Below, in pieces: positions 2,058-26,549 of a DNA stretch of 64,000 nucleotides. The notes beneath the pieces are model-generated. The model did not search any database, was not told the origin of the DNA, and saw only the letters and a program-made list of their open reading frames with translations. Position 1 is the first letter of the stretch. Each line of letters begins with the position of its first letter. Both the position numbers and the translations under genes were made by a program. This DNA is from Convolutriloba macropyga (lineage: Eukaryota), in assembly GCF_964194025.1 (NCBI RefSeq), contig NC_134469.1, positions 23,622,001 through 23,686,000 on the forward strand, written 5' to 3'.

Positions 2058-2122
2058 AAGAAATACTCGATGACCAATTTGGCTTCAGTGACTTGTAACT
2101 AACAAAAAAGTATAGTTCTCAC

Positions 2123-3766: not shown

Positions 3767-4104
3767 CTGAAATCACCAGATTTCAGTGCAAATAAACGCA
3801 AAATTTAATGCGTTGAAGCTTATATCTGTTTGAAATTTTTAGCCCTAAATCTTCGTTTAATTGTCAAAACATGCACAACTTTAAAAATGAGGTGGAATCA
3901 TTTAAAATTTCAGTCAAAGCTGAGGTTGCTTAACTTGAACCATAAACATGCAATTTATGGATAGGTGATCAATTTCAACATTGTGCCATATTCAGTATTC
4001 ACTTTATGGCTATTGGCTAAAACAACCCCTCCCGATCACAGACAATTTTTCTCGTTATTATTTGTAGATAGAATCAAGTTATAACCAGAATAGAATCTTC
4101 CTAC

Positions 4105-4422
4105 CTTCTGAGAGACAACACCAGACGACGGGGTCTGTGAGTCAGGCGACAGAACCCTGGGTGACATGATGATGTGGCGAAAGTGGAAGCTCGAATCGGA
4201 ACAAGTGCTTTCATAGTCAGAAGTTGCACTGTCCTCAGCTGAACAGCTCTGAACTGTAGTGAGCAAGTGGTTAACAACAGGATAGCTCACTGACGAATGC
4301 GAAGTGAATGCTGGTGTGAAACTCGAAGAGTGTTGATTCTTCTCTGCATCTGCCAAGAAAGTGGACTTGTTGGGGTCTTCGATTCCATCGAGGCTACAGT
4401 CATCGCTGGCATTCGATGACAT
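4105..4422 (-). CDS. FAM122A: FAM122/PABIR-like protein, first coding exon (Ser-rich N-terminus MSSNASDDCS...SQK)
   Basis: ATG at 4422; donor CAGAAG|GTAG at 4105/4104; 318 nt, phase 0; upstream acceptor TTTTCAG at 4473. Confidence 0.7.
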
Positions 4423-4895
4423 GATTGCACACTGTCGAGACACCGACCGGTACTTTTAGACCCTTACATTATCTGAAAACACGTTTGATAAATTGGACAT
4501 CTGATAAACGGCTTGTGGCCTCTACATACCAATAAAAAAACCGTTCGTTATTGATTGTGATAATTAACCTTAGTGACTTCCAAATGAGGGCAAAGCGCAG
4601 GGCGAAAATTTCAAAAATTGATAGGTTAGTTTATGATGAGGAGTTCGAAATGGTACAGAAATTGTCCCATTAAATGATCAATTATTGTGATTTACGGCTG
4701 GTCTACTTTTTTAATAATCGGTGACATATTAAACATTGGCTGTGCTGGCTTAATCACTCCCCCGTGTTTCCACGTGTCATCTTGAGTACGAGTAGCAGGA
4801 CTTTGTCTAACTTTAAAATTGAATAATGTACAGTTAATTAAATTTAACAGTTATTTACAGCCGTTATCGATGCGAGACTTAAATATATAGAGAAT

Positions 4896-7390
4896 AACGA
4901 TGCTCGGTAATGTGCGATTGCACATAAGGTTCCGACCCCGCTCAGCCACAAGTTTGGCATAGTTGTCTACCAAATGAGGAGCAGATAGAAAACCCCAAAA
5001 ATTCAAATATTTTTAAAAAAGAAAATTGGTGTATGAACGAAAAGATGCCTCCAAAGCAAATAACTCAGTGGAGTAAAAAATGATGCATTAGATTGATGAG
5101 AAATGCCAATATTAAGAAAGCGAGTCAAGACAAACAGCAAAATCAAACAACAACAAACATTAATTACATCAAAAAAATTATGTCCGTTTTAAAAAACAAA
5201 ACTTAATAACAAAGTCAAAACAGCGTCCGATAAAACTGAACTAAACAAAATAATTTGTAATTCACCAGAAAAGATATGGGACCAGTCCATAATAAGGCTT
5301 GGTAACAATTAGACAATAAAGAACAAACGGTAAATTTAAAAAATTCGCTTATTTTTTTATTAAAACAATTAATTTCGAAGTAATGAAAACCATTGTGAAT
5401 CAACCGAAATATCCCTTAGGTTTAATATTACAGGTGTTTCTAAAGATGGGAATTAAGAACTGTCGGTATTCAATTTTTATGCGGTTACAAAAAGAACAAC
5501 AAATAGACAACAAAAAAATCAGTTAAATTTCGCCAGAAAACGCACTTGAAGCCGTAAAGCCATACTTTGGCCCTCAAAATATGTTCAATTGCACCTTCTT
5601 CGAACACCAATAATGTATTATTTAACCTCATTTATTAAACCAGGTAACAAGTAGACAAATAAAAAAAAGGCAAAATTAAGTAAAACTTTTTTTCGAAAAA
5701 AAATTAATTTCAACGACATGAAAGCCATAAGTTACCCAATGAAATAGTTAAACATAATCGTTTATTCTTCCAAAGGAAGCCCCTGAGTTCTGCAATTACC
5801 CAGAATATATCTTACGTCTACAAGAATAACGTAAAAAATGACAAAAATCAAAAATTAATTTACTTTTTAAAAAAAACCGTGTCGAAGCCAGTAAAGTCAT
5901 AACGAATTCTTTGAACTCAATAGATTTTGTGACAACAATCCCTTTGACACGTTCCCCTGACCACAATATTGCCGTATTAGGCCTGTAAATAACGAGACTA
6001 GGTAACAATCAGACAAAAGGAACATACTAGCGAAGTTAAAACGTGTTGTTTTTATTTTGGAAAACAATTGTTTTCAAAGTCTTGGGAGCCATCAAATGTC
6101 TACAAATATCAGAATATCGGCCAATCTATTCTTCCATGAAAAACCAATAAAATAGGGTCATTGTACAGGAAATTTCTTGCGACTAAAAAGACAAAGTAAA
6201 AACGCCAGTTAAAGACAAAACTAAAAAATTCATTTAAATTCTTCGAGAAAGTATTGTCGAAGCCGTTAAAACGAGAGTCTATATCCTTAAGGATTTTAAT
6301 ATTATTTATTGTGCCCTATTTTGAACGCCAATAATGTGATATATTAACTGTCAATAACAAGATAATGTGACAAAACTAAAAAACGTTAAAAATGGGCAAG
6401 TACCTGAAAATAAAAAAAATGGGAAATCTAGTAGTATCAAAGCCAGAAAACCATAATTTAAGGTGTAAAACCGCAATAAAGATTGAAATTGAATTCATTA
6501 GAAAGAGAAAGCTTTCTTTCATTGCTGACACTAAGCTACAAGTTAACCAAATTAAGAGAAAAATGGAGGCACTAGTGAGCTTTGATTTGAAATGTTCTGT
6601 TATTTAATTAATATATAAAAAAGATCGATTTTTTTAAATAAAAAAGACCGTTTGATTAAATCCGAATTATTTTTATAATTGTAACAGTCCAAGATTGGTC
6701 CAAAACTAGCTCTGCTAATGCTCTTCGTGCATTAAGAACACTTTATTTTTCGAATGCTATAGATATAGATATTTTGTTAGTTAAAAAAACAAAAATAAAT
6801 GCTGTTTTTGATAATCAACGAGTAAAGTACGCAAAAAACGGCAAAGTTTTAATTACAGAGCACTCGCAACGGAAGTTCAAGTATGAATAGCCCCCCCCCC
6901 CCCCTTGAGTCTACAGAGATTGTATCAGTGTAGTTTGGGGGTGTACTTCCGGCAAATTTAATCAAAGTGGACTAAAGAAGCTTATTATGTGCTGTTTTTG
7001 ATGAAAAGTCTGAAATTTGAAATATTTGGCCAGAAATTTTGACAAAAAATAAATAAAAATAGCCGACAATTTTTTTGCTTTAAAAATAAAATCAACAACA
7101 CTTTCCTTAAAAAATTTAACAAATTAGCGAAATTTTAGTCAAAAATTTACGAAAATGTGAATAAAGTCAACGGAATTCACTCTATTTTCTCAAAAGTTTA
7201 AACCTCGATAACTCCCTGTAAAACACGAAAATCAAAAATTCTTTTTAATTCCATATTCTACGCTGGACTGCTTTTTAAATGATACCAGTCTCAACTCTCT
7301 ACAATGAATATATCGATCGGCCAAAATTTTCTGAGCAAAAAATAACTATTTAAGTATATAGTCCCCCCTCAAGAGGGGTCGGAACAAAAA
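4896..7390 (+). mobile_element. Non-coding ~2.5 kb interspersed repeat, Helentron/DINE-like non-autonomous element
   Basis: Colinear diverged copy at ~59893-62500; subterminal inverted repeat GTTCCGACCCC (4929-4939) / GGGGTCGGAAC (7375-7385); 3' hairpin CCCCTCAAGAGGGG followed by an A-run; no ORF. Confidence 0.7.
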
Positions 7391-7863
7391 TATAAGTTAA
7401 TATAGTTTTATTTACAATTATGCAAAGGAACTACTACTACTTGCCTTTTAAGGCAAGTTTTGCCGCAGGTTCTGCTATTAACAGATTGCTCCCTTATAAA
7501 AAGAAGTCGAGGGTGTCACTGTCGCGAATCAGGCACTTGACTTTAGATTATTAATGTATGCGAGAGAATTAACGGAAAATTTATGGTTCCCATTCAATGG
7601 GAAGCCTGTGTTATGAAGACACCTGAATAAACAATCCTGGTTCAAATCAACGGATCAGATCACTTTCATCAACAGCAGATAAGAGTCCTGAATATATGAC
7701 GTTCAAAGTATTCAATTTATCTCTAAACTTCCAACGACTTTCAAACTTTATGAAAACCAGAGAGCAGAAACCTTCAGAGCTTTCATTTAAAAGTTGTAGT
7801 AATTCGAGGGTGCACTTATTTCCTGGATAGGCGAGCTTCAATGTAAAAATTTCTCGCAAGACA

Positions 7864-9321
7864 TCACCGTTCTATGAGAAGCCTCGAACGAAATTGACTG
7901 CCTCTGATATCCCATAAAGGGTAAACATCTACTTTCTCTTGCATGCTGAGAATCCACGAGTCTAGGGCACTATCTAATCTTCTGTTGATTAATTCCACAG
8001 TATGAATGCGCAGATATCTGATGGAAGGATGATTATAGAGTTCAACTTGGAAAGGAATGACCAAATCTCTGACTACGTCATCGCCAAATCTCGGTACAAT
8101 ATTAATGCTCAATACCTTTAATTGCAATTGACGCATGCAAAAGCGAATGAACGGTGCAACATAACGATCTAACTCACTTGTCATGAAGGTCGCAGTAAAT
8201 AGCTCAAGGTTCCACTTAAAACTAGATAAATCACTGTCCGATATATCAACACCATCTTCAAAAGCCAGCATGACTCGTACCTTTGCTAATTGTGTGGAAT
8301 TTCTGAAGCAACCTAAAATCGAGTACCTTGTGCACAGAACTTCGCAGCTCGGGGGTAGATCCCCGAAATCATAAGTATTCCAGATTTTGGCTGATTCATT
8401 CTTGGGGAGGAGATGCAGATAGTTCAAATTTGGGAAGCATTGTGAAATAACTTGAGGAAGATTATATACATTTCCCTGCTGGTTGTGAACTATAACAGTT
8501 CGAATAGATGACAACTGACAGCTTGGAGGTAAACTTGTCTGAGGAATGCTTTCTAGTTCCAGCCTTGACAATCGTGTTAAAGGAGACAAATCAGAGAGTG
8601 ATCGAACAAGTTCTGTACCAAAGGTCTTCAAGCTTGGGAATTTGTGATGCAGGGACCGGAAAGGAGCTTCAGTTGAATTTGTGAAGTATGATTTTGAAAA
8701 GCCAGCCTTGACAACATTTTGACAATAGTTTGAAGGAGCAATTTCGTTGAGACATTCAAAAGTTTCCAATTCTTTCATGTCAATGCATATCTCAACATTT
8801 GCCACAAAGCAATTATTATGAATAAGCCTATCAAAAATATGTTGCATTAACATCTCATCTATTGGTCGAAACCCACGAAGAGCAAAGTGTTCTACGCTGT
8901 CTTCACAGAGCCTCGCCAGGGTTTCAAAAAATGGTTCGAACTGTTTGGGCATGCCACGTGGATAAATGTCATCAACGGTGCCCGCAACAACATCCAATTC
9001 TATTTTCAGATAATTGCACTTCCAATTTGTCTCACAAGCAACCGCATTTAAAATGTCAACCGAAATTGGTTCTCTTTCTGTTTCACAATCACTCTGATAA
9101 TATACAGCTTGATAGCGCGGGCTGATATCCAGAAAAACTTCAAGCTTTAAACTAATATGTAAGTTCGACACCTCTTCTCGCAAGGCACGACATGTTGACC
9201 GAACACTAATCAGGTCGCGAAAGCTGTTATTTTCAATAAATCCGAATTTCGTAATAACTAAATACTCAAAAATGCATCGTCTAATTTCGCGAGGCAAAAA
9301 TTCGAACAATGATTTTGTCAT
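7864..9321 (-). CDS. F-box protein (N-terminal F-box, LRR/FBD-like C-terminal region), 485 aa, intronless CDS
   Basis: MTKSLFEFLPREIRRCIFEYL...DLISVRSTCRALREEV is an F-box pattern; repeats FPSLKTF, LSRLELE, FPNLNYLHL are LRR-like; ATG at 9321 follows a T-rich AG acceptor at 9330. Confidence 0.8.
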   Translation of the reverse strand: MTKSLFEFLPREIRRCIFEYLVITKFGFIENNSFRDLISVRSTCRALREEVSNLHISLKLEVFLDISPRYQAVYYQSDCETEREPISVDILNAVACETNWKCNYLKIELDVVAGTVDDIYPRGMPKQFEPFFETLARLCEDSVEHFALRGFRPIDEMLMQHIFDRLIHNNCFVANVEICIDMKELETFECLNEIAPSNYCQNVVKAGFSKSYFTNSTEAPFRSLHHKFPSLKTFGTELVRSLSDLSPLTRLSRLELESIPQTSLPPSCQLSSIRTVIVHNQQGNVYNLPQVISQCFPNLNYLHLLPKNESAKIWNTYDFGDLPPSCEVLCTRYSILGCFRNSTQLAKVRVMLAFEDGVDISDSDLSSFKWNLELFTATFMTSELDRYVAPFIRFCMRQLQLKVLSINIVPRFGDDVVRDLVIPFQVELYNHPSIRYLRIHTVELINRRLDSALDSWILSMQEKVDVYPLWDIRGSQFRSRLLIER

Positions 9322-9944
9322 TACTGATACTAAAAAAAACAACTGTATGAAGTCGTGAGGGGCTATAGGAAACGATCCAACATCTAAACGCCTTGTTAGA
9401 CATCTTAAAAAAAACAAGATAATTATTGTAGAACATCCCAAAACCTACAAATGGAAAAATTGCTCTTGAATGACCGGACCAGCAGGATTAAAATAATTGC
9501 TACAAACTTCATTTGAGTGCAATTAAAAACCACTCTAATGAAACTTTATATGTGACCCTTGCTAGTATCAACTGCCCAAACTAAAGCCCATAAATGAATC
9601 CATCTTATATTAATCTGAGTGAGAGCAATTTGTCATAAAATTTTTAAAAAGATTCAAAAAATGTTGAATGATCGGACAGAAAAAGTTATTAAAAAGATTG
9701 GATTGACAAACTGAACACAATTTTATTGAGATCAACCAGAAACGAGACATCACTTTGAAGCAAATGTAACGGGAAATTGGCTTGAAACGCCCCAGTTGAT
9801 AAAAAGAAAAACTTGCACTGCTTTTGCTTTTCTCCAAACTTTGCTTTAAAACTGTGGCTGAAATTGCATTTGAATCATTTTGCTTCAGGAGCATTAATTT
9901 AAAGAAAAATCACTAAGAGCACGAAAACAGGTAGATATAGTGAA

Positions 9945-10128
9945 TTGTTGTTGTTGTTGTTGTTGGGGATTTACAGTTTTCACTGAGGGGATTTTCGTCC
10001 CAGTCGTCGTCTTAGAAAATTGTCCTATTATTTCTGCAGATCTGACAGTCACAGCATAGATGCCAGCTACAGATGTTATTTTCGTCGAATCGCTCGTTTA
10101 TAAACTTCCACATGAAATTTAAAACTCG
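9945..10128 (-). mobile_element. 5'-truncated copy of the LINE at 1-2057 with a (CAA)7 tail
   Basis: Reverse complement of 1877-2057 with one substitution seen. Confidence 0.95.
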
Positions 10129-10254
10129 GGACAGTCGCAAAATTCTTTGTTCTAAAATATATTTCCAATAACTTTCCTCATTTCATCAATCGACTCATAA
10201 AATTATGGCCACGCCGATTACTCTAAACTCATCAAGCTTTGATATGCAGATAAT

Positions 10255-11113
10255 TTTCACCTAGTTAAACAAACCCAAAACAAACAGAAATCAGAAGAAA
10301 TTCTTGCAAACATGACCGAAGATCTCAAATATTCAGTACAACTAGCCAGTGAGAAAGGCGCGTCTACGTGGTTGAATGCACTGCCAATAGAACGACATGA
10401 CCTCTGGTTAACCAAAACCGAGTTCAGAGACGCCCTATGCATTCGATATGGCTGGCAATTCAAAAATATTCCCGAGAAGTGTGCGTGTGGCTCGAAGTTT
10501 CTTGTATCCCATGCCCTTCACTGCCCTAAGGGAGGATATCCAATAATCAGGCATAATGAAGTAAGAGACCTCTTCGCCGAGCTTATGCGAAAAACTTGTT
10601 ACGATATCGAAGTTGAACCTCACCTGCAGCCTCTCAGCAATGAGAGCCTAAAACCCGCGACCTGCAAGGACGAGGAAGCACGATTAGATATCTCAGCTAA
10701 AGGCCTATGGGGTTCTCGCTTTGAGAAATCATACTATGATGTTAAAGTCTTCAACCCGTTTGCTCCAAAAAACAGACGTATTGGAATCAAAGAGAGCTAC
10801 AAGTTCCACGAAACGACGAAGAAAACCAAATACCTGGACAGAATTGTTGAAGTTGAGCATAGCTCTTTTATCCCTCTGATCTTTTCGACCACAGGAGGAA
10901 GCGGCCCCGGCTCCACAATAGTTATAAAACGACTTGCATCAAGAATTGCTGAAAAGACGAAAGACACGCATCCTAACGTCATAAATTTCATCAAACATCC
11001 CTGAGCTTCGCCCTACTTAGAAGCACAATCCTTTGTATAAGAGGCCACAGAGGACAACGCTCTTACAAAGAGGAGTCTTCACCCTGTGCATTTAATGCCG
11101 AAGTCAACCCATA
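10255..11113 (+). mobile_element. CRE-clade non-LTR retrotransposon 3' fragment (CCHC zinc motif + restriction-like endonuclease)
   Basis: ORF 10312-11004: WLNALP, CACG...HALHC, RHNEVRD, EARLDI, DVKVFNP, KKTKY, FIPLIFSTTGG; frameshifted tail LSFALLRSTILCIRG from 11001. Confidence 0.88.
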
Positions 11114-11531
11114 AATCTGTACATATAAACCTAATTTGAAACCTAACGTGAACGTAAATGTATACTGCTTCATACCAAACTTTGACCTCCAGAAACTGAC
11201 TGGTAATTTATTCATTTCATTAGCAGACGTGGTGCTCATTTTTTCATTCTAATAGCACACAGTGCACTTTGAATTTTCGTCTTTACGATCGGTTGCTTTG
11301 ATTTTGCTCTTTCTGTTTGGCCCAACCCAACCCAACGGAACGCAAGACGACAGATGAGGAGCTAGATGAAGAGTACGCAGTATCACACTTTCTCAGCAAC
11401 AACGATAAGCCGACCTAGTTAATCTCTCAGTCTCTTTCCCAAGAGGCGAGGCTTTAGTTGCGCGCCACCCCCCCCCCCCCTCCCAAAGGCCCCCTGCCAG
11501 AACTGCGCTGCCAATCTACACTACGCGGGAG

Positions 11532-12740
11532 TTGAGGCTTAGTCTACGCGTCTCCAACCTCGACCAAAGTCTAGCAACGAGCCACAACCAAAACCAGAGA
11601 AAACGCAAAGCAACTGATGGACCCCGAACCAGCTCCAAGATTAGAAAGAGGCAACCTGAGCAACATATTAAAGTAGTCTACTTCACATTTGAACATGAAA
11701 CACCGAGCCACAAAGAATTCAACCAGCAGCTGAAGAACTTAACTGGCAACCCGAACTACGGAGAAGTGAGGCGAAGTCAGAACGGAAAAGGCTACTCGAT
11801 GAAACCAAGAACTATCGAGATAGCAAAGATGATTACTGCAAATAAAGTCAAGGAAGCATTCGCAAACTACCAAGTCAAACTAAGCACTGCTGCCTCCAAC
11901 CCGGTGAAACCGAGCTTCGTCATAACAAGTGTAGACCAAGACATCGATCCTGAGGACGTTAAAAGTGAGCTGCAAAGTCAGAACATAGAGGCAACATCAG
12001 TACATAGAATAACAAGTCGTGCAACCAACCAACCTACGAGGCTCATAAGAGTGTTTACAAACACAGAGACAACTGCCAGGAATGCTGTTGACAACGGTGT
12101 CAAAATTTTCAATCAGAGAAAGAGATGTGAACGATCGAGACTAGAGCCCTCGGTAGTACAATGCTTCAAATGCCTCCAATATGACCACAAGGCGAAGGAC
12201 TGCCCGAACAATCTCAAATGTAGACGATGTGGCGGAGAGCATGTTATAAGAGAATGTGATGTTGCTCCAGAAAGTGCCAAATGCTCTAACTTCGGAGAGA
12301 GTCACTCTGCAAATTATCGAGGCTGCTCAAAGTACCAAGAAGCACGAGCTAGCAGCTATGCTGATGCAGTGAAGAGCAAGGTCCACACTAGTCCACAAAG
12401 CTCTCTGAACAAGATTGAAGAAGTCCTCAGCAACATCGACAAGAGGCTCGAGAAAATAGAGAGCAACCTCACTGAAAGGGTCCAAATACTTGAGAACAAA
12501 GTGGCTGAACTAAACAATAAGATCAATCTGGCGGAGCAAAGAGAACAAAACAGCATGACAATTATTGCAGCCATGAAACAATGCTTCTTCGATTCCCCAA
12601 AGCAAAAGATAAACATCCTCCAGGCTCTAAACGTTGTCTCTGGTCATAACTACAGTCAAGTTAAATACGATGCAAAGATTAGAGAATTCAAGCATCAATT
12701 CGCAAGCCAACGAACATCAATTCATCATGGCAAACCTTAA
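11532..12740 (+). CDS. LINE ORF1 nucleic-acid-binding protein (PRE_C2HC-like region, three zinc knuckles, C-terminal coiled coil); true start uncertain
   Basis: QCFKCLQYDHKAKDC, CRRCGGEHVIREC, CSNFGESHSANYRGC (one Cys lost), SYADAVK. Confidence 0.88.
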   Translation: MRLSLRVSNLDQSLATSHNQNQRKRKATDGPRTSSKIRKRQPEQHIKVVYFTFEHETPSHKEFNQQLKNLTGNPNYGEVRRSQNGKGYSMKPRTIEIAKMITANKVKEAFANYQVKLSTAASNPVKPSFVITSVDQDIDPEDVKSELQSQNIEATSVHRITSRATNQPTRLIRVFTNTETTARNAVDNGVKIFNQRKRCERSRLEPSVVQCFKCLQYDHKAKDCPNNLKCRRCGGEHVIRECDVAPESAKCSNFGESHSANYRGCSKYQEARASSYADAVKSKVHTSPQSSLNKIEEVLSNIDKRLEKIESNLTERVQILENKVAELNNKINLAEQREQNSMTIIAAMKQCFFDSPKQKINILQALNVVSGHNYSQVKYDAKIREFKHQFASQRTSIHHGKP

Positions 12741-15379
12741 AGTAGCTCAACTGAACGTCAGAGGCTTGAGACCAAAGCTCAGAGTTATTGAACCAATTTT
12801 ATTAGACAAGGGCATTCATGTAGCCTGTTTTAACGAGACAAAAACGAAGCAGCCTCCTCATCTGCGAAATTTTATCTTAGCTGCAAGCATTAACGACAAT
12901 ATACATGGCTCGGCCATATATATAAGAGAGGGACTAAACTACACACTGCTAGACAACAAATTCGTCAAAAACGTCTCTAAAACCAACGAGAAGCTGCAAA
13001 TAAGACTCAAAGAATCTGATGTTGACATTACTCTGATATACTGTTCACCCGGCAATGAGATTGAAGCAAGTCACTTGGTCAGGCACAATACTAGATGCAT
13101 AGTGGTGGGTGATTAACCCTATGATCAACCCTATGTCCACAAAGAGCGATGCAACAGGTCGAGTCGTTGAGGAACTTCTGGATGAAGAAAACATACTTCT
13201 GAATAACGACCTCAAAACGCATGAGAAGGGATCCGTTTTAGACCTGCACCTGTGCTCTAAGCCTTTGGCAAAACACATTGTGAAGTTCGAAATATTTGAA
13301 GAGACTATGAGCGACCACTATATGACCATCAGCGAATTTAACCTGCGAGCTCCAAAATCTAGATCACTGCGGCCAAATTGGAAATGCTTCAGAGAGAAGG
13401 TGAGTTGCTACAGAAGCCAGTATGCAGATTTGAACAGCAGAGCAGAAAGCATAGCAACCCACATTAAGACGTGTTACGAGAGCAGCCTCAAAGAAGCTAA
13501 ACCAATACAAAACAAAGAAATAGTCGCGCTCACCAGAAAGAAACACCAGCTGCAGAGAAAAGTCAGAAAGCTGAGAAGACTGGGCATGAGAGGTTACTCA
13601 GAGGAGAGATACCACACATCAGAGCTCAATAGAACATCGAGAAAGCTCTCACAATCACTAATACAAGAAAGGCAGAACCAAGAACTGAAGACGGTGGCCA
13701 GCATGAACTCAAATGGGAAGGGCATCGATTTCTGGAAGGCTTACAAGAAACTCACGCAATCTAGTAAGAGCAATGCAAACCAGCTTAAAATTAGCACGCA
13801 GGAGGCAGCAGATAAATTTGCTGAGAAACTGAAACAGAATATCAGAATGCATGAGGCTGTAACTCAGGAAGCTGAAGAGATTGAAGATCTAGTTGAAACA
13901 TGCGTGAACGAGAATGAAATAGCACAGTTTCGCCTGCCCCCTAACCACCGCGAAACTACAGTCGAGGTTGAACAACTGAGAAACATCATCAAAGGGAGGA
14001 AAAACACAGCTCCAGGACCTGACGGAATATCGTATAAAATATTGAAACAGCTACCAGACGCAATAATGAAAGAACTCAGTGACATAATACAAAGCTCTCT
14101 AAAAGATGGAATTGTGCCTGACTGCTGGAAAAGATCCAATGTCTCTATGCTGCCCAAGCCAAATAAAGACCACTCTGATCTCAAGAATTACAGACCTCTC
14201 TCCCTCACAAGTTGCATCGGTAAATTGTGCGAAGTTGTTATCAAGGAGCACTTAAACAAGCACTGTGAAAGTAACGATATCTTCACCAACGCGCAAGGCG
14301 CATACAGAGCAGGTCGCTCAACAACTGACAATTTACTCTGTTTAAGCGAACATATTTTCAATGAAGCCTTCTGGAAGCAGCCAACCGCAGCAGCTTTTCT
14401 CGATGTTCAGCAGGCATTCGATGCGGTGTGGCATAAAGGACTAATCTATAAAATGCAGCTAAACAAAGTGCCAGAGTGGATCATAAAATGGACCGTAAGC
14501 TATCTCAAAGACCGAGAGCTGACTGTAATATACCAACAGGCTGTGGCCAACAGCTTAAAACCAAGAGCAGGAGTACCACAGGGCAGCGTAATCAGCCCTA
14601 CACTGTTCAACATCTATGTCAGCAGTCCAGAAGTCTTGAATGCAAAAGTCTCCCAATATGCAGATGATATTGCAATATACACGAGTGGCAGAAACTGTAG
14701 AGCAGCTACTTTCAAACTACAGAAGGCTCTCAACTCACTGGACATGTGGTGCAACCTTTGGAAAATCAAAATTAATCCCGAGAAAACAAACTTCATGTTA
14801 TTGACCAGAAATAGAGACAAAAGCCACCACCATCTCAAACTGCAAGACGTAATTCTAAATCCATCGAAGTCGTCTACTTTTCTCGGAGTTGAGTTGAACG
14901 ATAATCTAACTTGGGCGGCGCAGATCAGGAAGATTGAAAACAAGATGTTTGGGAGAATAAATGGCCTCATGATGCTGAAAGCGAAAGGTGTCAACTCTAA
15001 GTGCCTCATATTACTATATAGAGCAACGATACGACCAATTATGGAGTATGCTTCGCCGGCATGGGCGAATGCTCCCAAGCACAGCATCATGAGACTTCAA
15101 ATACAACAAAACAAAGCCATAAGAGTAGCATTAGATCTACCCAGATGGACGTCGTCAGAAGAGCTACATAATGCAGCGAACCTTCCCAGAGTGAGCAAAC
15201 TTCTAGCCCAGAGAAATATACAATACCTCAAGAGAGCTTCTAGCAACAACGCAGCAATAAGAGAACTGATCCAAGATCAACTTACTAACACGACCACTGA
15301 ACTCCAATACATTACACCTGTACAGACGATACTGTTTGAAACAGCGAAAAATAGACTCGACAATGTGGGCAGTCCCTAG
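12727..15379 (+). pseudogene. LINE ORF2 (APE endonuclease + RT) with a single frameshift at the GDxN motif (~13113)
   Basis: MANLKVAQLNVRGL, NETK, VGD|N, SDH, APGPDG, YRPLSLTS, FLDVQQAFDAVWH, GVPQGSVISPTLF, QYADD. Confidence 0.92.
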
Positions 15380-16418: not shown

Positions 16419-17320
16419 CAATTAGATATGGGCCCAGTTAATAAAACACCTGATAATCCCCTTCGAAATTGTGAATAATGGCCTAAAAAGGTTAAATGTA
16501 AACCAGGAGCTTATACCAAATAACAAAAATTGTGGATCTTTTCCGTTTGCCCCCAAACCCCTCCGTTTGCCCCCAACCCCCCCCCCCCCCCCAGACGCAC
16601 GTGTCAAACTTTAACATAATGAATTAATGTGTTTAGTCATTCCAATAAAGTTGCAACGCTATCGAAAGCGTCAAAGTTCAAATTTTATACATTCAGTGAT
16701 CAGCTTTCGAAACTTCGCTAGTGTTGTAATATCCGTGCACTGTCTACGGTTACGGTTTGGGTTGGATGTTATTCTTAAGCACTTTAAACCTCGGAGTTAC
16801 TGAGGAAAATTCAGACTTGTTTCAGACTTGAATTTAATAGAGCAGTTGTAAATGTAATCAGTTTAATACAATTAGATATGGGCCCAGTTAATAAAACACC
16901 TGATAATCCCCTTCGAAATTGTGAATAATGGCCTAAAAAGGTTAAATGTAAACCAGGAGCTTATACCAAATAACAAAAATTGTGGATCTTTTCCGTTTGC
17001 CCCCAAACCCCTCCGTTTGCCCCCAACCCCCCCCCCCCCCCCAGACGCACGTGTCAAACTTTAACATAATGAATTAATGTGTTTAGTCATTCCAATAAAG
17101 TTGCAACGCTATCGAAAGCGTCAAAGTTCAAATTTTATACATTCAGTGATCAGCTTTCGAAACTTCGCTAGTGTTGTAATATCCGTGCACTGTCTACGGT
17201 TACGGTTTGGGTTGGATGTTATTCTTAAGCACTTTAAACCTCGGAGTTACTGAGGAAAATTCAGACTTGTTTCAGACTTGAATTTAATAGAGCAGTTGTA
17301 AATGTACAATCAGTTTAATA
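16419..17320. repeat. Tandem duplication of ~450 bp spanning the host/LTR junction
   Basis: 16419-16868 vs 16869-17320 identical apart from a 2-nt indel; CAA microhomology at the junction. Confidence 0.95.
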
Positions 17321-17791
17321 CAAAGTTAGAACTATTGCTTATAAATATTAGAAGTTTTCTGAAGATGAGAAATGTAAAGCAATTAAAGAGAGGCAGCTCG
17401 ATTGTGTAAGGTTTAGTTTTGAATATGTTCTTTGGTTTCAGTTCTATCAATGGTTAATTAATCTTAGGTTATTTTTACCCGTTTTCGTTAATCTCTATGG
17501 GATTTTCTCATAGTTATTTTCTACCGCACTTGTCCCTGTTAGTTAAACTAACAGATAACAGGATTACCTGCTTGTTGAATCCCGTCATGAACAAACATTC
17601 CTTGACGTGTCCCGTCAAGATGAAATTCCATGATGATTCCTATCATTATTTATGATGCTTTCTCTATATTGTTAAAATACGGTTTACTATTAGTAACCAT
17701 CTCTTTTTGTTCTCCTATTTGTTTGTGAAAATTTCGAATTATGCGTTTAATATGTAATTTATGAGCATGTCAAACATTATGGTTCACTATA
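17175..17791 (-). repeat. 3' LTR (~617 bp)
   Basis: 17175-17494 matches 26233-26549; plus-strand TGTAAT start; other end inferred from the adjacent PPT (TATAGT, probably mutated TGTAGT). Confidence 0.82.
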
Positions 17792-17804
17792 CTGCCTCCC
17801 TCTT
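17792..17804 (-). other. Polypurine tract
   Basis: Minus strand AAGAGGGAGGCAG abutting the 3' LTR. Confidence 0.75.
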
Positions 17805-17844
17805 AGAAAATGTGAGTGTTCCTCTCACTCACACAGCAAGAGTT

Positions 17845-18687
17845 TCAAATGTCCATTTTCGAGTTCATATATTCTTGTGCTTTTTCAATCCCGTACTTGT
17901 CAAAAATATTACGGGCCTCCTCGTCTTCCATAATTTTCTTTGCCTGAAGAATGATTTTGAACATGTCCTCACGACCACCCTTGTCCGGATGACAGAGCAT
18001 TGCCAACGTTTTGTAATGTTTCTGGATAGTACTGGTTGTGGCCCCCTGTGGCAGGAATAGAAGTTCATAATAGTTTGGAGGTCGACTGAACGGGCTCTGC
18101 GCGTTGATCGCCTCCAGCCTCCTCTGTATGACCTTCTTTGAGGTCTGCTCTGTATTTACTCTACCCATTAGCTTTCTATTGTCTATCTCGGCATTCTCCA
18201 ACTCCCGAGCTAAGCACTCCCGCTCGTCCACCAGAGCGAAACATTCCCTTGTTTTTGTTTCGGCTACATTTGTAACCTCCTCCAACTCTTTCTTCAATGT
18301 TTCCGACTGCCTCATGCAGGACTCCCGCTGATTCCCAGCGTATTCAATTTGCCGTTTGGTCTCCAGCAATTGATCACCTAATCTTTGACTTTCAACTTTT
18401 AACTGCCGGAGCTGCTCTTCAAGCCGAGCCCCGGCTGTTCCCAGCATTTCGCTGTTGTCAATCTTCTTTTGTTGTTCCTCGATTCTGTGTTGCATCTCAA
18501 TTAACTCCCCAACGCAAATTGCGGCTCTATCCACTATATTGGGATGTTGCAGCTGCGTCAGTGGCACCACGTACCTTTTGTTTGAGGTTACTCCAACAAT
18601 CCGATACACTTGGTGCCTGACTATCGACCTGACCTCGAACAACTCGGGTAGATAGTAGCAATAGTCACCGACCTTTAGTTCTGCCAT
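17845..18687 (-). CDS. Element-encoded J-domain (DnaJ/Hsp40-type) protein: small N-terminal beta domain, coiled coil, C-terminal J-domain; 280 aa, intact
   Basis: NYYELLFLPQGATTSTIQKHYKTLAMLCHPDKGGREDMFKIILQAKKIMEDEEARNIFDKYG covers J-domain helices I-IV with HPD; E/Q/K/R-rich heptads over residues ~60-195. Confidence 0.92.
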   Translation of the reverse strand: MAELKVGDYCYYLPELFEVRSIVRHQVYRIVGVTSNKRYVVPLTQLQHPNIVDRAAICVGELIEMQHRIEEQQKKIDNSEMLGTAGARLEEQLRQLKVESQRLGDQLLETKRQIEYAGNQRESCMRQSETLKKELEEVTNVAETKTRECFALVDERECLARELENAEIDNRKLMGRVNTEQTSKKVIQRRLEAINAQSPFSRPPNYYELLFLPQGATTSTIQKHYKTLAMLCHPDKGGREDMFKIILQAKKIMEDEEARNIFDKYGIEKAQEYMNSKMDI

Positions 18688-18760
18688 TCCTACATATCAT
18701 ACACGTAAATTAGTCTAATGTATCAATCTCAATTTCTGCTATATCTGGTACAGATTTTGC

Positions 18761-20151
18761 CTATTTTGCTTTTATTACTAAGATGTTTGTTTCACCATCA
18801 CACCGTTCAACTGTCCTTTTTCTTGTTAATTTTAGTTCTTTTCTTCGTTGTTTTAGATGATGAAAATAACCTAGTTCCCCCATTGGGTTAATGGGTTGCA
18901 GTGCAATTACAGGATTGGTGCCACTGCGTAGCATATCGATTGAAAGAAACACGCGTACCAAACAAAATATGATTTTAGATCCAATAAAAATAGGATTTTT
19001 ATTGGATCTAAAATATGTTATGTTATCCATGACCCATATGTTATCCATGACTCATTCTGCAATTCAAGAGCGTTCGGGTACATGGGGTTGCAATTAATCA
19101 GTGTGAAATTTCTATAGATTACTCTAGAAATGGGGTCCATGTATCTAATTACTTCTGAGGTATTGTCAGAAAACACCCTAACTGGTACTTCCTCCGTACA
19201 AAACTGATTTTCGACAACATGTACGATTACTTTAGCGCACCTATGGACATAAAGTATTCCTCCCGCTCTTTCTGCGTGTGTACCCAGAGCGTTTTGTTGA
19301 TTTAAAAAAATTAAATGTGAATTTCCGTTAAATGATGTCGTTAGAATCATAGCTCTGTGCAGCTTTTCTATGTGACAATTTAATAACTCTATTTGTTTCA
19401 GGTTTTCAAACATGCCTCGAAAATCCCACACAAAAAGTTGATCGAGTTTTATTTCCCTGAGATCTGTCTCAGATATATGTGTTGTTGAAAAATTTTGTTC
19501 CGTGGCCGTCAACTTTTCCGTTGTGTAAAATAAATTTCTGTGGTTTGTTTCAAAAAGCAGAAAATTGTCTATATATTTTGTCTTGTTTTTCAACTGGACA
19601 ACTAAATTTCATTTTCTGTCTAGTTTGCCCGTCAATCACTTTGTTTCCAGCGCGGACTATTTTTGCTGTTATCGAGTCTGAAAATTTAACGATCGTTAAG
19701 ATGTTTGGACTTCTTTGGGAGCATTGAATTCAAAATCACCAAGACCCGGTAACCGCGCTTTGTGTCCCTGCCATAGATTTTGACAGACTGACTCTTTTAT
19801 TGGGTAAAACGTTGGAATTATTTGTGATTTTTCGCTTAAGTAAGTTGCGTCGTCATACCAACTACTTTTTTTCAGCACAGTTACCGTATATGCAGCCCTG
19901 TACATGCAGTATTTTAGTTTACTCATGCTGCTTTTGGCGTAGATCAGTCCTCCTTTGTTTACCTGCTCCTCATTTATATGTGACGTTTCATAATTTGTCG
20001 GTTCCGTCACTGCAAATTTCTGCGTCTGTAGAATGTTCTCAAAATCATAACCCAAAATCTCCAAGGATCGTGAAAAACCTAATATGCTAACCAACTGAAG
20101 AAGTTTCCAGTTCAGCTGCACGATCCAATGTGGGTTCCACGCCCTCTGCAT
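18761..20151 (-). pseudogene. Env-like glycoprotein related to chuvirus-type class III fusogens; frameshifted and internally deleted
   Basis: Signal peptide then ILGYDF (cf. LIGYDC); AGGILYVHRCAKVIV...CTEEVPV...YMDPISRVI...INCNPMYP...W matches the chuvirus-G C-terminal pattern AGEVVHIxKCxPV...CYxELPV...FLxPxTHIL...CNxxxP; hydrophobic remnant and basic tail in 18761-19048. Confidence 0.8.
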
Positions 20152-20167
20152 TTTGTCGTATCACCTT

Positions 20168-22061
20168 TTAAAAAAATACATCATTATCAAATTTTTCATC
20201 TGCATCGTTATCCTTGAATAAAAAATAGTCTTTCACTTTCCGTGGTCTGGTTATTCCCGACGCAATTCTTGTTTGATATCGTCGTTCGGCGACATTTTGC
20301 GAAGTAGAAGCCATGCTCCTATTTGGAAATTCTTCGCCTTCACTCCTTTCGGATGTTGACACCAGACTATCCCGCTTCTGCTGTGTGGCTACTTTGGGCG
20401 CCAGTATCTTTGTGCTTCTGCTATTATTGTTGGTGTTAGTATTTATTGATTCTCTTGTACTCCCACCCATAGGTGTTTGAAACAATTAGTTTTTGACTGT
20501 CTCATTGTGAGTTTCAGTATTAGGATTAATTTGACTAATATTTCCTTCAGTTTGAACTTCTCTTATTTCTGTGTTCTTCAATTTTGGGGTCAACACTTCA
20601 ATTTCCACAAAACCATTGTCCTCCGTAAGGTCGTTTTGTGTTATTCTCGGTTCAATCTTTCCCTTCTTAGGTTTTTTTATCAGTGTTATTTTTTCTACTG
20701 TTAAAACGTTTGAGTCGATCGTAGTGGACCTTTTGTTGTTTTTTTGTTTTCACATCCTCAATAACAAAGTTCAGATCGTTTATTATTTCACGTATTGCCT
20801 GCGGTCCGCTGTAAAAGGATTTAAGTTTCCTTGTCTGGCCATTTTTTATTGTGGCGTTGAACACCATTACTAAATCACCTACTTCATATTGTGGTCCAAA
20901 TGTGCTACGGTCATAGTAGGTTTTTTGTCTTTCTTGCTCCCCATCCATGCTTTCCCGTACCAGCTCATGGCAGGTTTGTAGTTCGTCTTTCAAGCAACCA
21001 ACGTAGTCACTCAAAGTTGGGTAGATTTTGGTTTGTATTGTTTGATACATGCAATCAATCGGCAGCGCGCACGATCGTCCATAAAGGAGGTAAAAGGGGC
21101 TGTACTTCGTAACAGAGTGAATTGATGATCTGTACGCCATCATTACTAGCGGAAGGTAGTCGCTCCAGGTGTTGTGATGCTCACCCACATATTTTGCAAG
21201 ACTCTCTTCGATTGTGCGATTGGTGCGCTCTATCATTGCGTTTCCTTGAGGGTGATAAGCTGTTGTTGACGTCCTGTTAAATCCCAGCTCTTTACACATG
21301 TTCTTGAAAAGATTCGACATAAAATTACTGCCCTTGTCGCTATGAAGATTTGCCGGACAACCAATCTTTGAAATCCATACGTTTACAAAGGCCTTAGCTT
21401 CCGTTGAAGCTTCTTGGTTGCTCGTGGGAATTGCTTCATACCATTTTGTAAACTGATCTTCAATTAACAGAATAAATTTGTTTCCGCTGGACTCGGGTAA
21501 AGGTCCCATAATGTCTAAGGCAACATGCCAGAACTGATGACTTGGTTTCCACGTTGTCAGGTTGTGTATGTGTTTCCGGTGTGGAGATTTCGTTTGATAG
21601 CATTCTTCGCAAGAACTTACCCCCTCGTGGACATCTTTTTTCATCCCGGGCCAGTAGAATCGTTCTCGAACCCGATCAAATGTCTTGGCCATACCAAAGT
21701 GTCCGCAATGTTCATGAAGGAAAAGTAGAAGTGATCTCTGAATGACTATTTGTGTTAAGTTATTAAATTCGTCAATACGTTTCTGTCTCTTGATTAGATC
21801 ATTTTCAATCCGTAGGTTTCTGAAATCAGTCCAAAGTTTCAACAGTGCCCTAGAGGCTCCTGCCATGCGTTTTCCTTGAGAGCGTTTCCTGTTCTCAATC
21901 CAGTTTCTCAGTATAATGAGGTCGGCTGCATTTTTCTGATGTTCAAATAGTTGTTCAACAGATTTCCCTAGTCCAATGGACCAGATATTTTTTTCTTCCG
22001 TATTTATTTGGTTCACTTGATCGCAGTCTTTGACTTGGTCTTCAGTCTGTGGAACTCTCAA
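20168..22061 (-). pseudogene. Gypsy integrase (HHCC, DDE core, GPY/F) plus frameshifted C-terminal tail
   Basis: HEHCGHFG...CEEC, LDIMGPLP, HSDKGSNF, YHPQGNAMIERTNRT, SPFYLLYGR, FYSGPQ, VHYDRLKRF. Confidence 0.93.
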
Positions 22062-23363
22062 CAGACAATCCGCGTGAGGGACCTTTATCCCGCTTCGTGT
22101 TTGATTTCAAAGTCAAACTGTCCGAGCTTTTCTCTCCATTGGGCCAATAATCCGTCTGGTTCCTTAAAACTATATAACCACGTGAGGGCCCTATGGTCAG
22201 CAACAATTAAAAATTTTTGTCCCTGAAGATAATTTCTGAAGTGGTGAGTAAAATAAACTATTGCAAAAAGTTCTCGTTTTGTCGCAGAATAGTTTCGTTG
22301 ACTTTTGCTGAGCGTTTTGCTTGCGTAAGCAATAACTCTTTCACCCCATTGTTGTATTTGGGAAATAATTGCGGCAATGCCAAACAAAGAGGCGTAGGTG
22401 GTTAACGTATAGGGATCCATTTCATTCGGATAACCCAAAATTGGTGCTTTCTATAAAGCTTGTTTTCGTTGTTCAACTGCTGATTCACATTGCTTGCTCC
22501 AAGTAAAGCGTTCTTTTTTGTTTAATAGCTTATAAAGCGGCTCTGCTATTTTTCCGAAATCTTGTATGAATCTTCTGTAAAAGCCTACTAGTCCTAATAT
22601 AGCTCTCAATTCTTTTATTGTTCGTGGGCTTTTCATTTTACTGACTGTCGCTACTTTCTCCGGATCCACTTCAACGCCTTTATTTGATACAATGTGTCCC
22701 AGGAAATGAATTTTTTCCTAAAAAATAAACCTGCATTTTGAGCCTTTTATTTTCAATGCAGCGTCTTTAAGTCGCCCAAGTACAAGATCTAGGCAGTTGC
22801 GATGCTCCTCAAAGGATCTACCGAAGATGATTATGTCATCCAGGTATACTAAAGCCTTTTCGTAGGAGAGTCCCGACATGATCAATTCCATTAAATTTTG
22901 AAAAATTCCTGGCGCGGACGCCAAACCCATGGGTAGTCTCTTCCATTTGTAGAGTCCCATTGGAGTGTAGAGTTCTGTGACTCTTCATCGAGTGCGCCAT
23001 TTGAAAATATCCCGATGTCAAATCGATATTGAAAAAGTAACAATTTCCGTCTAGAGAGTCAATAACGTCATTTATTCTTGATAGCGGCCAACTGGTTTTC
23101 TCGATTTGTTTATTCAAACCTCTGTAATGTAAAACTGGTCTGTAGCTGCCATCTTTCTTCTTCACCAATATTGATGGTGCTGCCCAATACGAATGGGTTG
23201 GTTCAATTATTTTTGCATCCTTTAGATCTTCGACAATTTTTTTCATTGCTTTTCTTTTATCAAAACTCATACTGCAATAACTTTTTCTGAACGGCTGTGC
23301 ATCTTTGTTGAGTTAAATCTGGTGTTTAATTTTGTCAAAATATCCTAAGTCATTTGAGTTTCG
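22062..23363 (-). pseudogene. Gypsy reverse transcriptase and RNase H, multiply frameshifted
   Basis: SYWAAPSILVKKKDGSYR, IDLTSGYFQ, LPMGLASAP, YLDDIIIF, LGLVGFYRRFI, IAYASKTL, YSATKRELFAI, DHRAL. Confidence 0.93.
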
Positions 23364-24200
23364 TCAGAAGACTTGTTGATGTCTTGAGAACAATTCCTGT
23401 AATTTCTCCTGCTGGTCACTTAGTTTAGAACCTTCCAAGTTTGCGTGTTTTCCCATTTGAAAAGTTTCCAATGTTTTTGACTTATTTTGATTTGTGAAAA
23501 TTCCATTCACAACTAAGTTTTGTTTGTTTTCAAAGTAAGTTCCCACTTTAGTGCTTTTATACACGGTTACTGGTGCGTTCGTTAGATTTAACACTTTTAT
23601 CAAACTCCAACCATCTTCCATTGATATCATACAGGCGGCTAAAAGCAAACCAGTCTTTAATTCAAAATCTTCAATTGCTTCCACTAATTCTTCCACTCCC
23701 GGAATTTCTTCTCCGTTTTCATCAGCTAATCTGATTTTCATTAGACTTTCGTTTTTACTCTGTATATAAGTGTTTTGTCCCGCAATTGCAATAACTTGAA
23801 CACCTTGCGTTTTCTCTTTGGTGAGCGGTATTGAAATTTTAAATTGACTGCTATATAGTTTCGCTTCGTGTAAGTTCAATACACATTTATTGGTTTTCAG
23901 GAAATCAATTCCCAGCAGACATTCTATACCTTCGTCTGTCGTTATCACAAACTTTTGTTCAACCTCCGGTAGTCTTGGTTGCAACCGTACCAAAAGCGTT
24001 ACTCTGCCTATTATTTTGACAGCTGAGTTTTTGGCTGTTAACACTCGTTTTGTGTATGTTTGTACAATTCACGATTTTCCCAGTTTTTTGTATGTGGACC
24101 AGCTCGAAAGCGATATACTACTTCCACTGTCTTTTAACCCAACGCATCTGTTCCCGTGAAGTATGATTTCTGCGTTTAGACAGTTAATTGTGTTTGTCGA
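23364..24200 (-). pseudogene. Gypsy aspartic protease and linker
   Basis: GLKDSGSSISL catalytic motif near 24130; CLLGIDFL. Confidence 0.85.
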
Positions 24201-25193
24201 ACAAACTCTAATGACATTGCAATTCTCGGTGGTTTTCTTTTTAAAAGGGTAGTTTCTTTTCAAGTGTTGGGAACTTCCACATAGGAAACAATTTCGAAAA
24301 TTCCTCGAAAGGTGTCCTTCTTGTCCACAGGTTCTGCACTTGAAACTCTGCCTGTCGTTCCTCCTAGACGGTTCCTCTCTTCCAAAAGATCTGTCTTGGT
24401 GACTAGGCCCTGGCGTTGGAAATCGCCGCCGATCGTTAAACCCACGATCTTGTTGCTGTCCTCTGTCACGTCTTTCGTCACCCCACCGTCCTCGGGAACC
24501 GCTTCGCTCCCTAGATCGATTTCGACGGTTTTCTCGCTGTTTGTTATCTACTGACAATTGGTTCACAAGCTTGGTGACGGCCTCCACTAAATCTTTTGTT
24601 TCATCTCGTCTAATTACCGCAACTTTTGGTGTTCGCTCTTCCTCCTCTATTCTTGTTACAGCTTCCAGATGCAATGCTCTTTCCAAAACTGTTTCAATTT
24701 TCATATCCTTGACGCCGATTTGCTTTCTGAGATCTAACCTCATCTGACTATGGTTGATTCCTTCTAGAAATCATCTCAGAACGAGATGGTCTCTAATCTC
24801 TTGCGACTCCGTTGGGTAAGCTTTCAAAGCCAACTGCTTTAAATCTCCCAGAAAATCTGTCAGTTTTTCTCCTGGTTGCTGTACGCGGCGAGCTAGCCGT
24901 CCCCGGAAAACGACCGGTATTTCGCTGTAGTGTTCTCAAAAAGCTTTAACGCACTCATCATAATTTTCTCGTGTAGCTTGCGGTAGAGTGCGATAGAACT
25001 CTATGGCAGATTTTTGTAGCCTAAGTGCAAAGTAATGCTGCCGTTCATCAACTTTGCGAGCCGGATTTCCTTCAGTTCTTCTCCACTTTTGTAGTTCCGC
25101 TAATAGCTCAAAATTCGTCACGTAACTTTCCAAGTCATTTGAACCGGTAAATGCTTCCGGTAATAGCATTCTAGAGGTTGAGCCCGTTGCCAT
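24201..25193 (-). pseudogene. Gypsy gag (capsid + two degenerate zinc knuckles), disrupted
   Basis: PEAFTGSNDLESYVTNFELLAELQKW; CRTCGQEGHLSRNF and CFLCGSSQHLKRNY. Confidence 0.88.
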
Positions 25194-26219
25194 TTTATTG
25201 TTCCCCTACTTGTATTGTGCCCTTTTAAAACTTTGTTAAGTTGTCGAAATTAATAGTTTCTACAAAATAATTATCAAGTAGATTGTCACTGGAAGGTGTT
25301 TTCTATTTTTATCTATTAATTTCTATAGCACTCTGTTTATTTTAATGTTTAAAATACTTCTGTTTATAAAAATCTAACGCTTATTTCAATACGGAATTTT
25401 TTTTTTTTACTTATTTATTTACTTTTCTTTATTTTTAAGGAAGTTTTAATTTACAGTCTTATAGACGACTGTCCCACCTAATTTCTCTTTTTTTATTTTA
25501 ATATGATTCTGTCCGAACTTCGATTTTCCTTTTTTATTGATGTTTTTAATATATTTTCTTTTCTATTTACGGCAAGGATGATATTAGGTGCTTTAGTTTT
25601 CTTTTACTTATTATGCTTATAGTTACCTGATCAACTTTTTTTCGCTTTATTTTCTCTTTTTTTTAATGGTAGTTTCAGAAAAAGTAAATATATAACTTTC
25701 AGCAACTGTTTCAATTGATTTAACAACGCGACTATCCCGCACTGTTTTTTCCGATGGTTATGCCGCTCGTTTTCTAAAAGTCAATTTAGTAACTAAAGTC
25801 AAAAGAAAAAAATATTTCTTAGACTAATAAGAATTACGCAGTGGCGATCAGTTTCAAATACGAACGACTAAAACAAGATAGAACTCTTTATTTCTACTCA
25901 CTTGGTATGATGCGGTCTTTCCTTACAGGGAAGTTTCCTTGTCCACCATTAAGTAAAAGATAGCACCACGCTAGTAATTTCTCACTTGTTTTCCTGCGAC
26001 TGATGTCCTGTGACTGATGTCCTCCGCTGTGGCTTCTGCAATTGATATCCACAAAAATTGGTGGAAATTGGTGGTAATTGAAGATTTGTTATCATAAATA
26101 TTTGTGTTTGTTTTGAGAATAATTCGATTCTCGGAGTTTTTGGGGTAAAAGTGCTTTTTATTTGCGTCTCCCTACCGACAAATTTGTTAAAGATTTTAAA
26201 TTGTTAACTTTCCTTTAAA

Positions 26220-26231
26220 TCTCTGTCGCCA
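26220..26231 (-). promoter_or_regulatory. Primer-binding site
   Basis: Minus strand TGGCGACAGAGA begins 1 nt after the LTR end (...ATTACA c TGG). Confidence 0.8.
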
Positions 26232-26232
26232 G

Positions 26233-26549
26233 TGTAATATCCGTGCACTGTCTACGGTTACGGTTTGGGTTGGATATTCTTAAGCACTTTAAACCTCGGA
26301 GTTACTGAGGAAAATTCAGACTTGTTTCAGACTTGAATTTAATAGAGCAGTTGTAAATGTACAATCAGTTTAATACAAAGTTAGAACTATTGCTTATAAA
26401 TATTAGAAGTTTTGTGAAGATGAGAAATGTAAAGCAATTAAAGAGAGGCAGCTCGATTGTGTAAGGTTTAGTTTTGAATACGTTCTTTGGTTTCAGTTCT
26501 ATCAATGGTTAATTAATCTTAGGTTATTTTTACCCATTTTCGTTAATCT
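26233..26549 (-). repeat. 5' LTR, truncated on its outer side by a LINE fragment
   Basis: 3 substitutions + one 3-nt indel versus 17175-17494. Confidence 0.92.

Follow-up and report, generated by a model that had tools for sequence, protein, structure and literature searches.

An accessory J-domain gene in an envelope-bearing Ty3/gypsy lineage of Convolutriloba macropyga

The window analysed here is a stretch of 64,000 nucleotides from the genome of Convolutriloba macropyga (NC_134469.1, positions 23,622,001 to 23,686,000), which holds on its minus strand a decayed long terminal repeat (LTR) retrotransposon of the Ty3/gypsy type, referred to below as the window copy of family A. The last open reading frame (ORF) of this element lies between the envelope gene (env) and the polypurine tract (PPT) and encodes a protein of 280 aa with a C-terminal J-domain, the J protein. 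Comparison with other copies, with sister families and with more distant relatives revealed that a J-domain gene in this env-bearing gypsy lineage is real, selected and clade-wide, and that a Ty3/gypsy clade bearing envelopes of the gB type has long carried the 280-aa ORF as an accessory gene.

The J gene in family A and in the window copy

The genome searched was an assembly of 1.18 Gb in 4694 contigs. A total of 137 of the 1794 candidates from a search with the J protein were scored, all of them matches, and only two candidates were scored in a search with the DNA of the whole element. Among the best 30 of the 137 matches, 24 carried no stop and 27 kept the HPD motif of the J-domain, and LTR sequence, whole or partial, was observed downstream of J in all of the 29 other loci. 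With five tandem near-duplicates removed, 25 copies were left, and env stood directly upstream of J in 23 of these, the exceptions being L016 and L019. A reverse check from the 26 best integrase rows gave, by eye, a J match nearby in 20; in five of the remaining six the J region is present in full, though broken, with the LTR behind it, and the sixth ends 20 nt into J. Env was joined straight to the PPT in no copy examined, no target-site duplication (TSD) or poly-A of the J ORF's own was found among them, and no host-like DnaJ parent was present among the matches, the best non-family matches covering the J-domain only. The 280-aa ORF is thereby confirmed as a fixed part of the family and not a one-off retrocopy. 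The sequence-only reading of the window had proposed a lineage with an accessory J gene lying behind env and before the 3′ LTR, and had named a retrocopy confined to this copy, flanked by its own TSD or poly-A, as an outcome that would overturn it; the proposal is upheld, with J retained in other copies without such flanks, under purifying selection, and present in two sister families. J was also found amplified locally without gag-pol, in tandem arrays of a 1.8–2.7 kb unit made up of an env fragment, the J ORF and a partial or whole LTR (L004, L005, L009, L022 and L025 in one array; L016 and L026).

The J gene is under purifying selection. Variants found in a single one of the 25 copies comprised 63 synonymous and 144 nonsynonymous changes and six stops, as against 26.5 synonymous and 17.5 nonsynonymous changes and no stop among shared variants (Fisher p 4e-4), which is the pattern expected if inserted copies degrade and the lineages that still replicate depend on the J protein. 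With singletons dropped, J had a pairwise ratio of nonsynonymous to synonymous polymorphism (pN/pS) of 0.16 and the 3′ 494 codons of env one of 0.26, while J read in its two shifted frames, as a control, gave 1.97 and 1.06. Within J, the ratio was 0.14 for the J-domain, 0.10 for an N-terminal barrel and 0.25 for the helix between them.

In open copies of family A, gag and pol form one frame of 1682 aa; env (686 aa) and then J follow, each after a gap of <30 nt. The Pfam matches of the gag-pol frame were zf-CCHC, Asp_protease_2, RVT_1, RT_RNaseH_2, Integrase_H2C2, rve and Integrase_p58_C, with the BEL/Pao families not among them. Open-copy env has an N-terminal hydrophobic stretch, six NxS/T sites, one transmembrane (TM) segment (~586–605) and a tail of ~80 aa; its residues 292–614 match PF24664 (E 2e-14, 53 bits, cut-off 27), and a PDB sequence search with it gave no significant match. 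This homology to class III fusogens would place the predicted glycoprotein with those of the gB-type errantiviruses. The 617-bp LTR pairs of seven copies differ at 0–15 positions, and a 4-bp TSD was observed in five of the seven copies with both ends read, the other two being mismatched (two further 5′ windows missed the LTR), so that family A has moved recently. A primer-binding site (PBS) of 12 nt matches the host tRNA-Ser(GCU). The LTRs, PBS and PPT, domain order and TSDs are those of Ty3/gypsy elements (Metaviridae). As further observations, family A LTRs begin with TA and not with the canonical TG (window position 17791 included); residues ~440–620 (between protease and reverse transcriptase) and 1510–1682 (after the integrase) of the gag-pol of copy L031 have no Pfam match, the former interval being 30–49% conserved in the sister families B and C; and tRNA-Ser(GCU) genes and variants lie in tandem arrays with ~300 bp spacing (L123, L124).

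The features of the window copy are as follows, in window positions, from the 5′ end of the element.

26233–26549, minus strand: remnant of the 5′ LTR, the last 317 bp of the 617-bp LTR; the other half, upstream, is missing from the window
26220–26231, minus strand: PBS, 12 nt complementary to the CCA-bearing 3′ end of host tRNA-Ser(GCU)
25194–26219, minus strand: untranslated leader, ~1 kb; the matching stretch of another copy has motifs resembling splice donors
20168–25193, minus strand: gag-pol (gag with zinc knuckle, protease, reverse transcriptase (RT), RNase H (RH), integrase), broken in the window copy
18710–20151, minus strand: env, a class III (gB/chuvirus-like) glycoprotein, broken and with two deletions in the window copy
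18688–18713, minus strand: candidate splice acceptor, a branch-point-like CTAAT and a YAG before the J ATG, overlapping the env stop
17845–18687, minus strand: J ORF, 280 aa, open; ATG at 18687, stop at 17845, HPD at residues 233–235
18523–18684, minus strand: N-terminal four-strand beta-barrel, Tudor/PWWP/SH3-like (predicted structure)
18097–18513, minus strand: single long helix of ~140 residues, probably a coiled coil, of differing length between families
17899–18075, minus strand: J-domain with HPD
17792–17804, minus strand: PPT
17175–17791, minus strand: 3′ LTR, 617 bp, with TA...CA ends

The window copy is a dead, decayed member of its Ty3/gypsy family. Its gag-pol holds eight in-frame stops and was recovered by tblastn in four segments that alternate between two frames, while its env holds three stops and two deletions of ~105 and ~110 codons (~320 bp each). 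Pfam matches on the minus strand run in the order zf-CCHC, RVT_1, RT_RNaseH, Integrase_H2C2, rve, Monjiviricetes_fusion and DnaJ; the protease went undetected by Pfam in the broken frames of this copy and was detected in an open copy. The window-copy env matches the viral fusion glycoprotein family PF24664 (E 2.8e-11). The sequence-only reading had described a run from PBS through gag, the enzymes, a glycoprotein and a last ORF to the PPT between matching LTRs; its domain order stands, and the 5′ LTR proved to be truncated. It had also seen a complete J-domain with HPD in the last ORF, and this agrees with a match to DnaJ (PF00226) over positions 1–63 of the 63 in the profile (E 4.4e-14). The J stop lies 40 nt from the PPT. 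The 5′ LTR remnant is 98% identical to the matching part of the 3′ LTR and adjoins an RT fragment of the long interspersed nuclear element (LINE) type, and no TSD is readable around this truncated copy. The J ORF is the sole open frame among the element genes of the window copy, and its openness could be due to chance, given a gene this short. A unit of 450 bp, composed of 152 bp from the end of the 3′ LTR and 300 bp of flank, is repeated in tandem with 100% identity (window 16419–17318), either as a local duplication of very recent date or as an artefact of assembly.

Other features were observed elsewhere in the window. Inverted repeats of 181 nt (99% identical) enclose 7.9 kb (1877–10128), including an open frame of 526 aa without a Pfam match (7864–9444, minus strand), and the unit may be a DNA transposon whose transposase went unrecognised. 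A LINE-like element with a PRE_C2HC-like ORF1 and an RT frame of 758 aa occupies 10243–15379, a foldback-like structure of arrays of 15–33-nt repeats, inverted and ~2 kb apart, lies at 39208–41609, and a region at 4902–7346 recurs 55 kb away at 59901–62515 with 73–88% identity.

Sister families and the predicted J protein

A profile-free search was run over 1.84 billion representatives, followed by a search of the genome with the relatives found. Full-length relatives of the J protein were obtained at ~30% identity among the representatives, and relatives in other assemblies are 25–35% identical. Two sister families of the genome, B and C, both keep gag-pol, env, J and LTR. Compared with family A, family B is 66–86% identical in RT-RH, 28–36% in env and 26–27% in J (285 aa), and has 437-bp LTRs and the same PBS; family C is 78% identical in RT-RH, 31–45% in env and 32% in J, with identical terminal repeats in its one copy. 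One family-B copy, L037, has no env, an open J ORF and LTRs that are 99.8% identical. The ends of the family-B LTRs overlap the PBS. L033 and L121, at first candidates for further families, proved to belong to family B and to carry deletions or frameshifts. Other J relatives (P0167, P0314, P0315, P0163, P0156, P0295, P0186 and P0250) are known as proteins alone, and an env relative, P0281, was found at 41% identity. When searched back against the genome, P0167 gave best rows of ~30% and the env protein P0123 best rows of ~42%; since these are distant matches only, both belong to other genomes. A scan of JGI metagenomes gave 80 loci, all with generic J-domains and none with gag-pol, env or barrel matches, and no relatives were found in two viral_contigs scans and a phage tblastn search.

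In a tree of 71 J-domain rows, calculated with P0315 left out and with a bootstrap that had not settled, 10 element-type rows fell into one branch of 13 with a support of 99/100, and the three extra rows look on inspection like family members or fragments. This supported branch points to a single origin of the J-domain of the elements.

The AlphaFold2 model built on 21 diverse rows (predicted local distance difference test score, pLDDT, 90) contains strands at residues 8–41, a helix at 58–196 and the J-domain at 205–277; it supersedes an earlier fold from near-identical copies (pLDDT 66), in which the barrel was unresolved. The fold of the J-domain is complete, with HPD between helices II and III and a basic helix II, and resembles solved J-domains with a Z of 10.0 and a root-mean-square deviation (rmsd) of 1.9 over 69 residues. 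In the diverged alignment, HPD is kept in 12 of the 13 J-bearing rows, the other relative carrying NPD, while the helix differs in length by tens of residues. The best matches of the predicted barrel were a PWWP domain binding single-stranded DNA (Z 8.2, rmsd 1.7 over 54), the N-terminal barrel of Hpy99I (Z 8.0) and the SMN Tudor domain (Z 7.5, rmsd 1.6–1.8). Overall, the barrel matches ranged from Z 7.5 to 8.2, which the tool rates as middling, with rmsd 1.0–1.8 over 46–54 residues, a Foldseek E of 3.5e-3 and no sequence match; a search of Pfam and PDB by sequence linked the barrel to neither Tudor nor PWWP. By eye, the positions that would correspond to the Tudor aromatic cage look non-aromatic. 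Arginines R28 and R37 are among the most conserved barrel residues and would fit docking on nucleic acid or on an acidic protein. An origin of the barrel as a duplicate of the SH3-like C-terminal domain of the integrase was also considered and found no support, with hhalign probabilities of 0.07 and 0.26 per cent.

All nine J proteins checked lack a signal or TM segment. Because the J-domain is C-terminal and only PF00226 matches broadly among the 21 rows (Pfam), the J protein is of class C and not of DnaJ class A or B, and the model suggests the build of such a protein, with a targeting module, a spacer and an Hsp70 trigger. A full-length match to the barrel–helix–J arrangement was found in none of Pfam, PDB, BFVD and the Atlas clusters; the ESM Atlas gave a best score of 0.80 and no usable match, and the viral J proteins retrieved by Foldseek match over the J-domain.

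Expression and possible roles of the J protein

Splice-like motifs were observed before J and env. In 23 of the 30 family-A loci the J start is immediately preceded by a CTAAT with a YAG, such sites numbering eight in 9309 nt of the element. In family C the motifs before J are CTAAT, a T-rich tract and TAG, and in family B the first conserved strand lies upstream of the first in-frame ATG, behind TAG or CAG. A T-tract and AAG stand before env. These motifs suggest that env and J are expressed from spliced subgenomic RNAs. A joint from just past the PBS into env, skipping 6.5 kb, was seen against L031 in two of four runs (X1–X4); it would represent a short derivative, non-autonomous, in which the 3′ part of the element would be retained.

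As a committed guess, with a probability of about 0.45, we propose that the J protein aims Hsp70 at the element's own particle. The J protein would be made from a spliced subgenomic RNA, a step for which the odds appear favourable; the barrel would dock on the target, and the long helix would act as a spacer, probably in a dimer. By analogy with other J proteins, it is very probable that cytosolic Hsp70 would be recruited in a manner dependent on HPD, the HPD loop causing it to hydrolyse ATP and to clamp on the target. That target would be the ribonucleoprotein particle of Gag and Pol, to which Hsp70 would be brought for the assembly, maturation or opening of the capsid.

Several points weigh against this proposal. 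The choice of target is a guess with no link from the J protein to Gag, Pol or RNA, and most Ty3/gypsy and env-bearing elements replicate without a J gene. The barrel scores lie within the common range of the tool, and the barrel was taken from the full-length model. In family A the acceptor motif coincides in part with the env stop, and CTAAT is present in only one of four family-B loci. The four runs gave a DNA-like, even cover, with GT..AG ends in none of the 15 joints listed of 197; we count this on the same side, though it is uninformative on expression. Lastly, the 30 copies examined were the best-scoring ones and are biased toward intact copies.

The strongest competitor, though on balance improbable, is that the J protein is an Hsp70 adaptor aimed at a host complex, which it would dismantle or starve of Hsp70; the complex could be one of PIWI-interacting RNA (piRNA)/PIWI loading or of chromatin silencing, or a restriction factor. 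The model for this reading is the J-domain of the simian virus 40 (SV40) T antigen, which directs Hsp70 at Rb-E2F. The barrel resembles Tudor and PWWP folds, and these folds read PIWI tails, chromatin or nucleic acid. J has diverged much faster (26–32% identity) than RT-RH (66–86%), yet env has diverged as much as J (28–45%). The env-less and recently inserted copy L037 keeps an open J ORF, though this may reflect mere proximity to the PPT. The available parts of two studies place host chaperones in silencing, with Hsp70, Hsc70-4 and Hsp83 acting in Drosophila piRNA biogenesis (PMC10627563) and a host J protein in transposable-element silencing in Arabidopsis (PMC8616336). Counting against a host target, the barrel is without a sequence match to Tudor or PWWP, its cage positions appear non-aromatic as judged above, and it is the most constrained part of J in family A (pN/pS 0.10), with no sign of an arms race. 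A bolder and somewhat less probable version holds that an old env-bearing gypsy clade, present in several host genomes, turned 'complex', and that its Tudor/PWWP-like barrel, rod and J-domain aim Hsp70 at host transposon silencing; if true, this would be a chaperone-powered counter-defence encoded by an LTR retroelement.

It is unlikely that the J protein acts independently of Hsp70, with selection acting on a scaffold, or on a rod that binds nucleic acid, and the J-domain being a relic. The J-domain is divergent, with long branches, and one relative has NPD, but HPD persists in 12 of 13 diverged rows at ~30% overall identity and the J-domain has a pN/pS of 0.14. A slightly poorer candidate is a helper of env, by which the J protein would bring cytosolic Hsp70 to the glycoprotein tail or to sites of budding or entry. 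The position of J directly behind env in all three families and the length of the env tail after the TM segment (~80 aa) speak for it, whereas the env-less copy L037 keeps J, and the ectodomain in the lumen of the endoplasmic reticulum would be out of reach of proteins that lack a signal or TM segment in nine of nine cases. Among the roles suggested by the sequence-only reading, handling of the fusogen ectodomain is for this reason the weakest. A retrocopy or neutral passenger from a host DnaJ gene, for which nothing was found beyond a PPT-adjacent position that could favour hitch-hiking, can practically be dismissed, as it is contradicted by the pN/pS of 0.16 among shared variants and the conservation over three families, and no host-like parent was seen among the matches.

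Relation to known elements and significance

To our knowledge, Metaviridae are described as carrying gag, pol and at most env, and as dependent on host chaperones. Foamy viruses and human T-cell leukaemia virus (HTLV) have accessory ORFs between env and the 3′ LTR, probably expressed from spliced RNA, and we know of no J-domain in these complex retroviruses; they belong to Retroviridae, whereas the family described here is Ty3/gypsy with a J-domain gene. Class C J proteins such as auxilin combine a targeting module with a J-domain, a plan shared by the J proteins of giant viruses and phages, although the barrel–helix–J arrangement itself has no full-length match.

The nearest relatives in layout are the HSV/gB-type 'errantiviruses' of Chary and Hayashi (PMC13524379), and the comparison here is with the accessible part of that source. 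They likewise have gag-pol-env, a class III-type glycoprotein and a tRNA-Ser PBS, their env shares the N-terminal hydrophobic stretch, the TM segment and the lack of a furin site, and they too are multi-copy with near-identical LTRs; the present family adds an ORF between env and the PPT. DnaJ, J-domain and chaperone had no matches in the accessible text of PMC13524379, and DnaJ, PF00226, J domain and ORF4 had none in seven supplements, the cells of which were searchable to 400 characters. According to the same part, its methods did not look for genes behind env, and J-type genes may therefore lie unnoticed in its elements. Likewise, bdelloid rotifer LTR elements carry captured non-envelope genes behind pol that were proposed as auxiliary factors, namely a GDSL esterase, a DEDDy nuclease and coiled-coil or TM proteins in the ORF3 position (PMC5408684, accessible part), while the extra gene here is additional to env; DnaJ or chaperone had no matches in that part. 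In the SV40 T antigen, a parasite's own J-domain with a targeting region similarly directs host Hsp70 (PMC7356129, accessible part); unlike the present case, this is a DNA virus, with an N-terminal J-domain and a known target, and homology to it beyond the J fold was not seen, no search aimed at it having been made. In the full-text literature searched, no LTR element with a J-domain gene was found; Repbase, Dfam and GyDB were outside the scope, and an unremarked database entry for such an element is possible. The sequence-only reading had considered the layout undescribed, which holds for the J gene within this literature and fails for the env-bearing gypsy part, gB-type env in gypsy elements being already established in the accessible part of PMC13524379.

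The finding suggests that surveys ending at env overlook 3′ accessory genes. Since the J protein is small and soluble, its role is testable with one expressed gene. If the J protein recruits Hsp70, an endogenous retrovirus-like lineage has taken control of Hsp70 into its own genome, independently of the polyomaviruses, and the partner of the barrel would mark either a chaperone-limited step of the retrotransposon particle or a host defence worth attacking.

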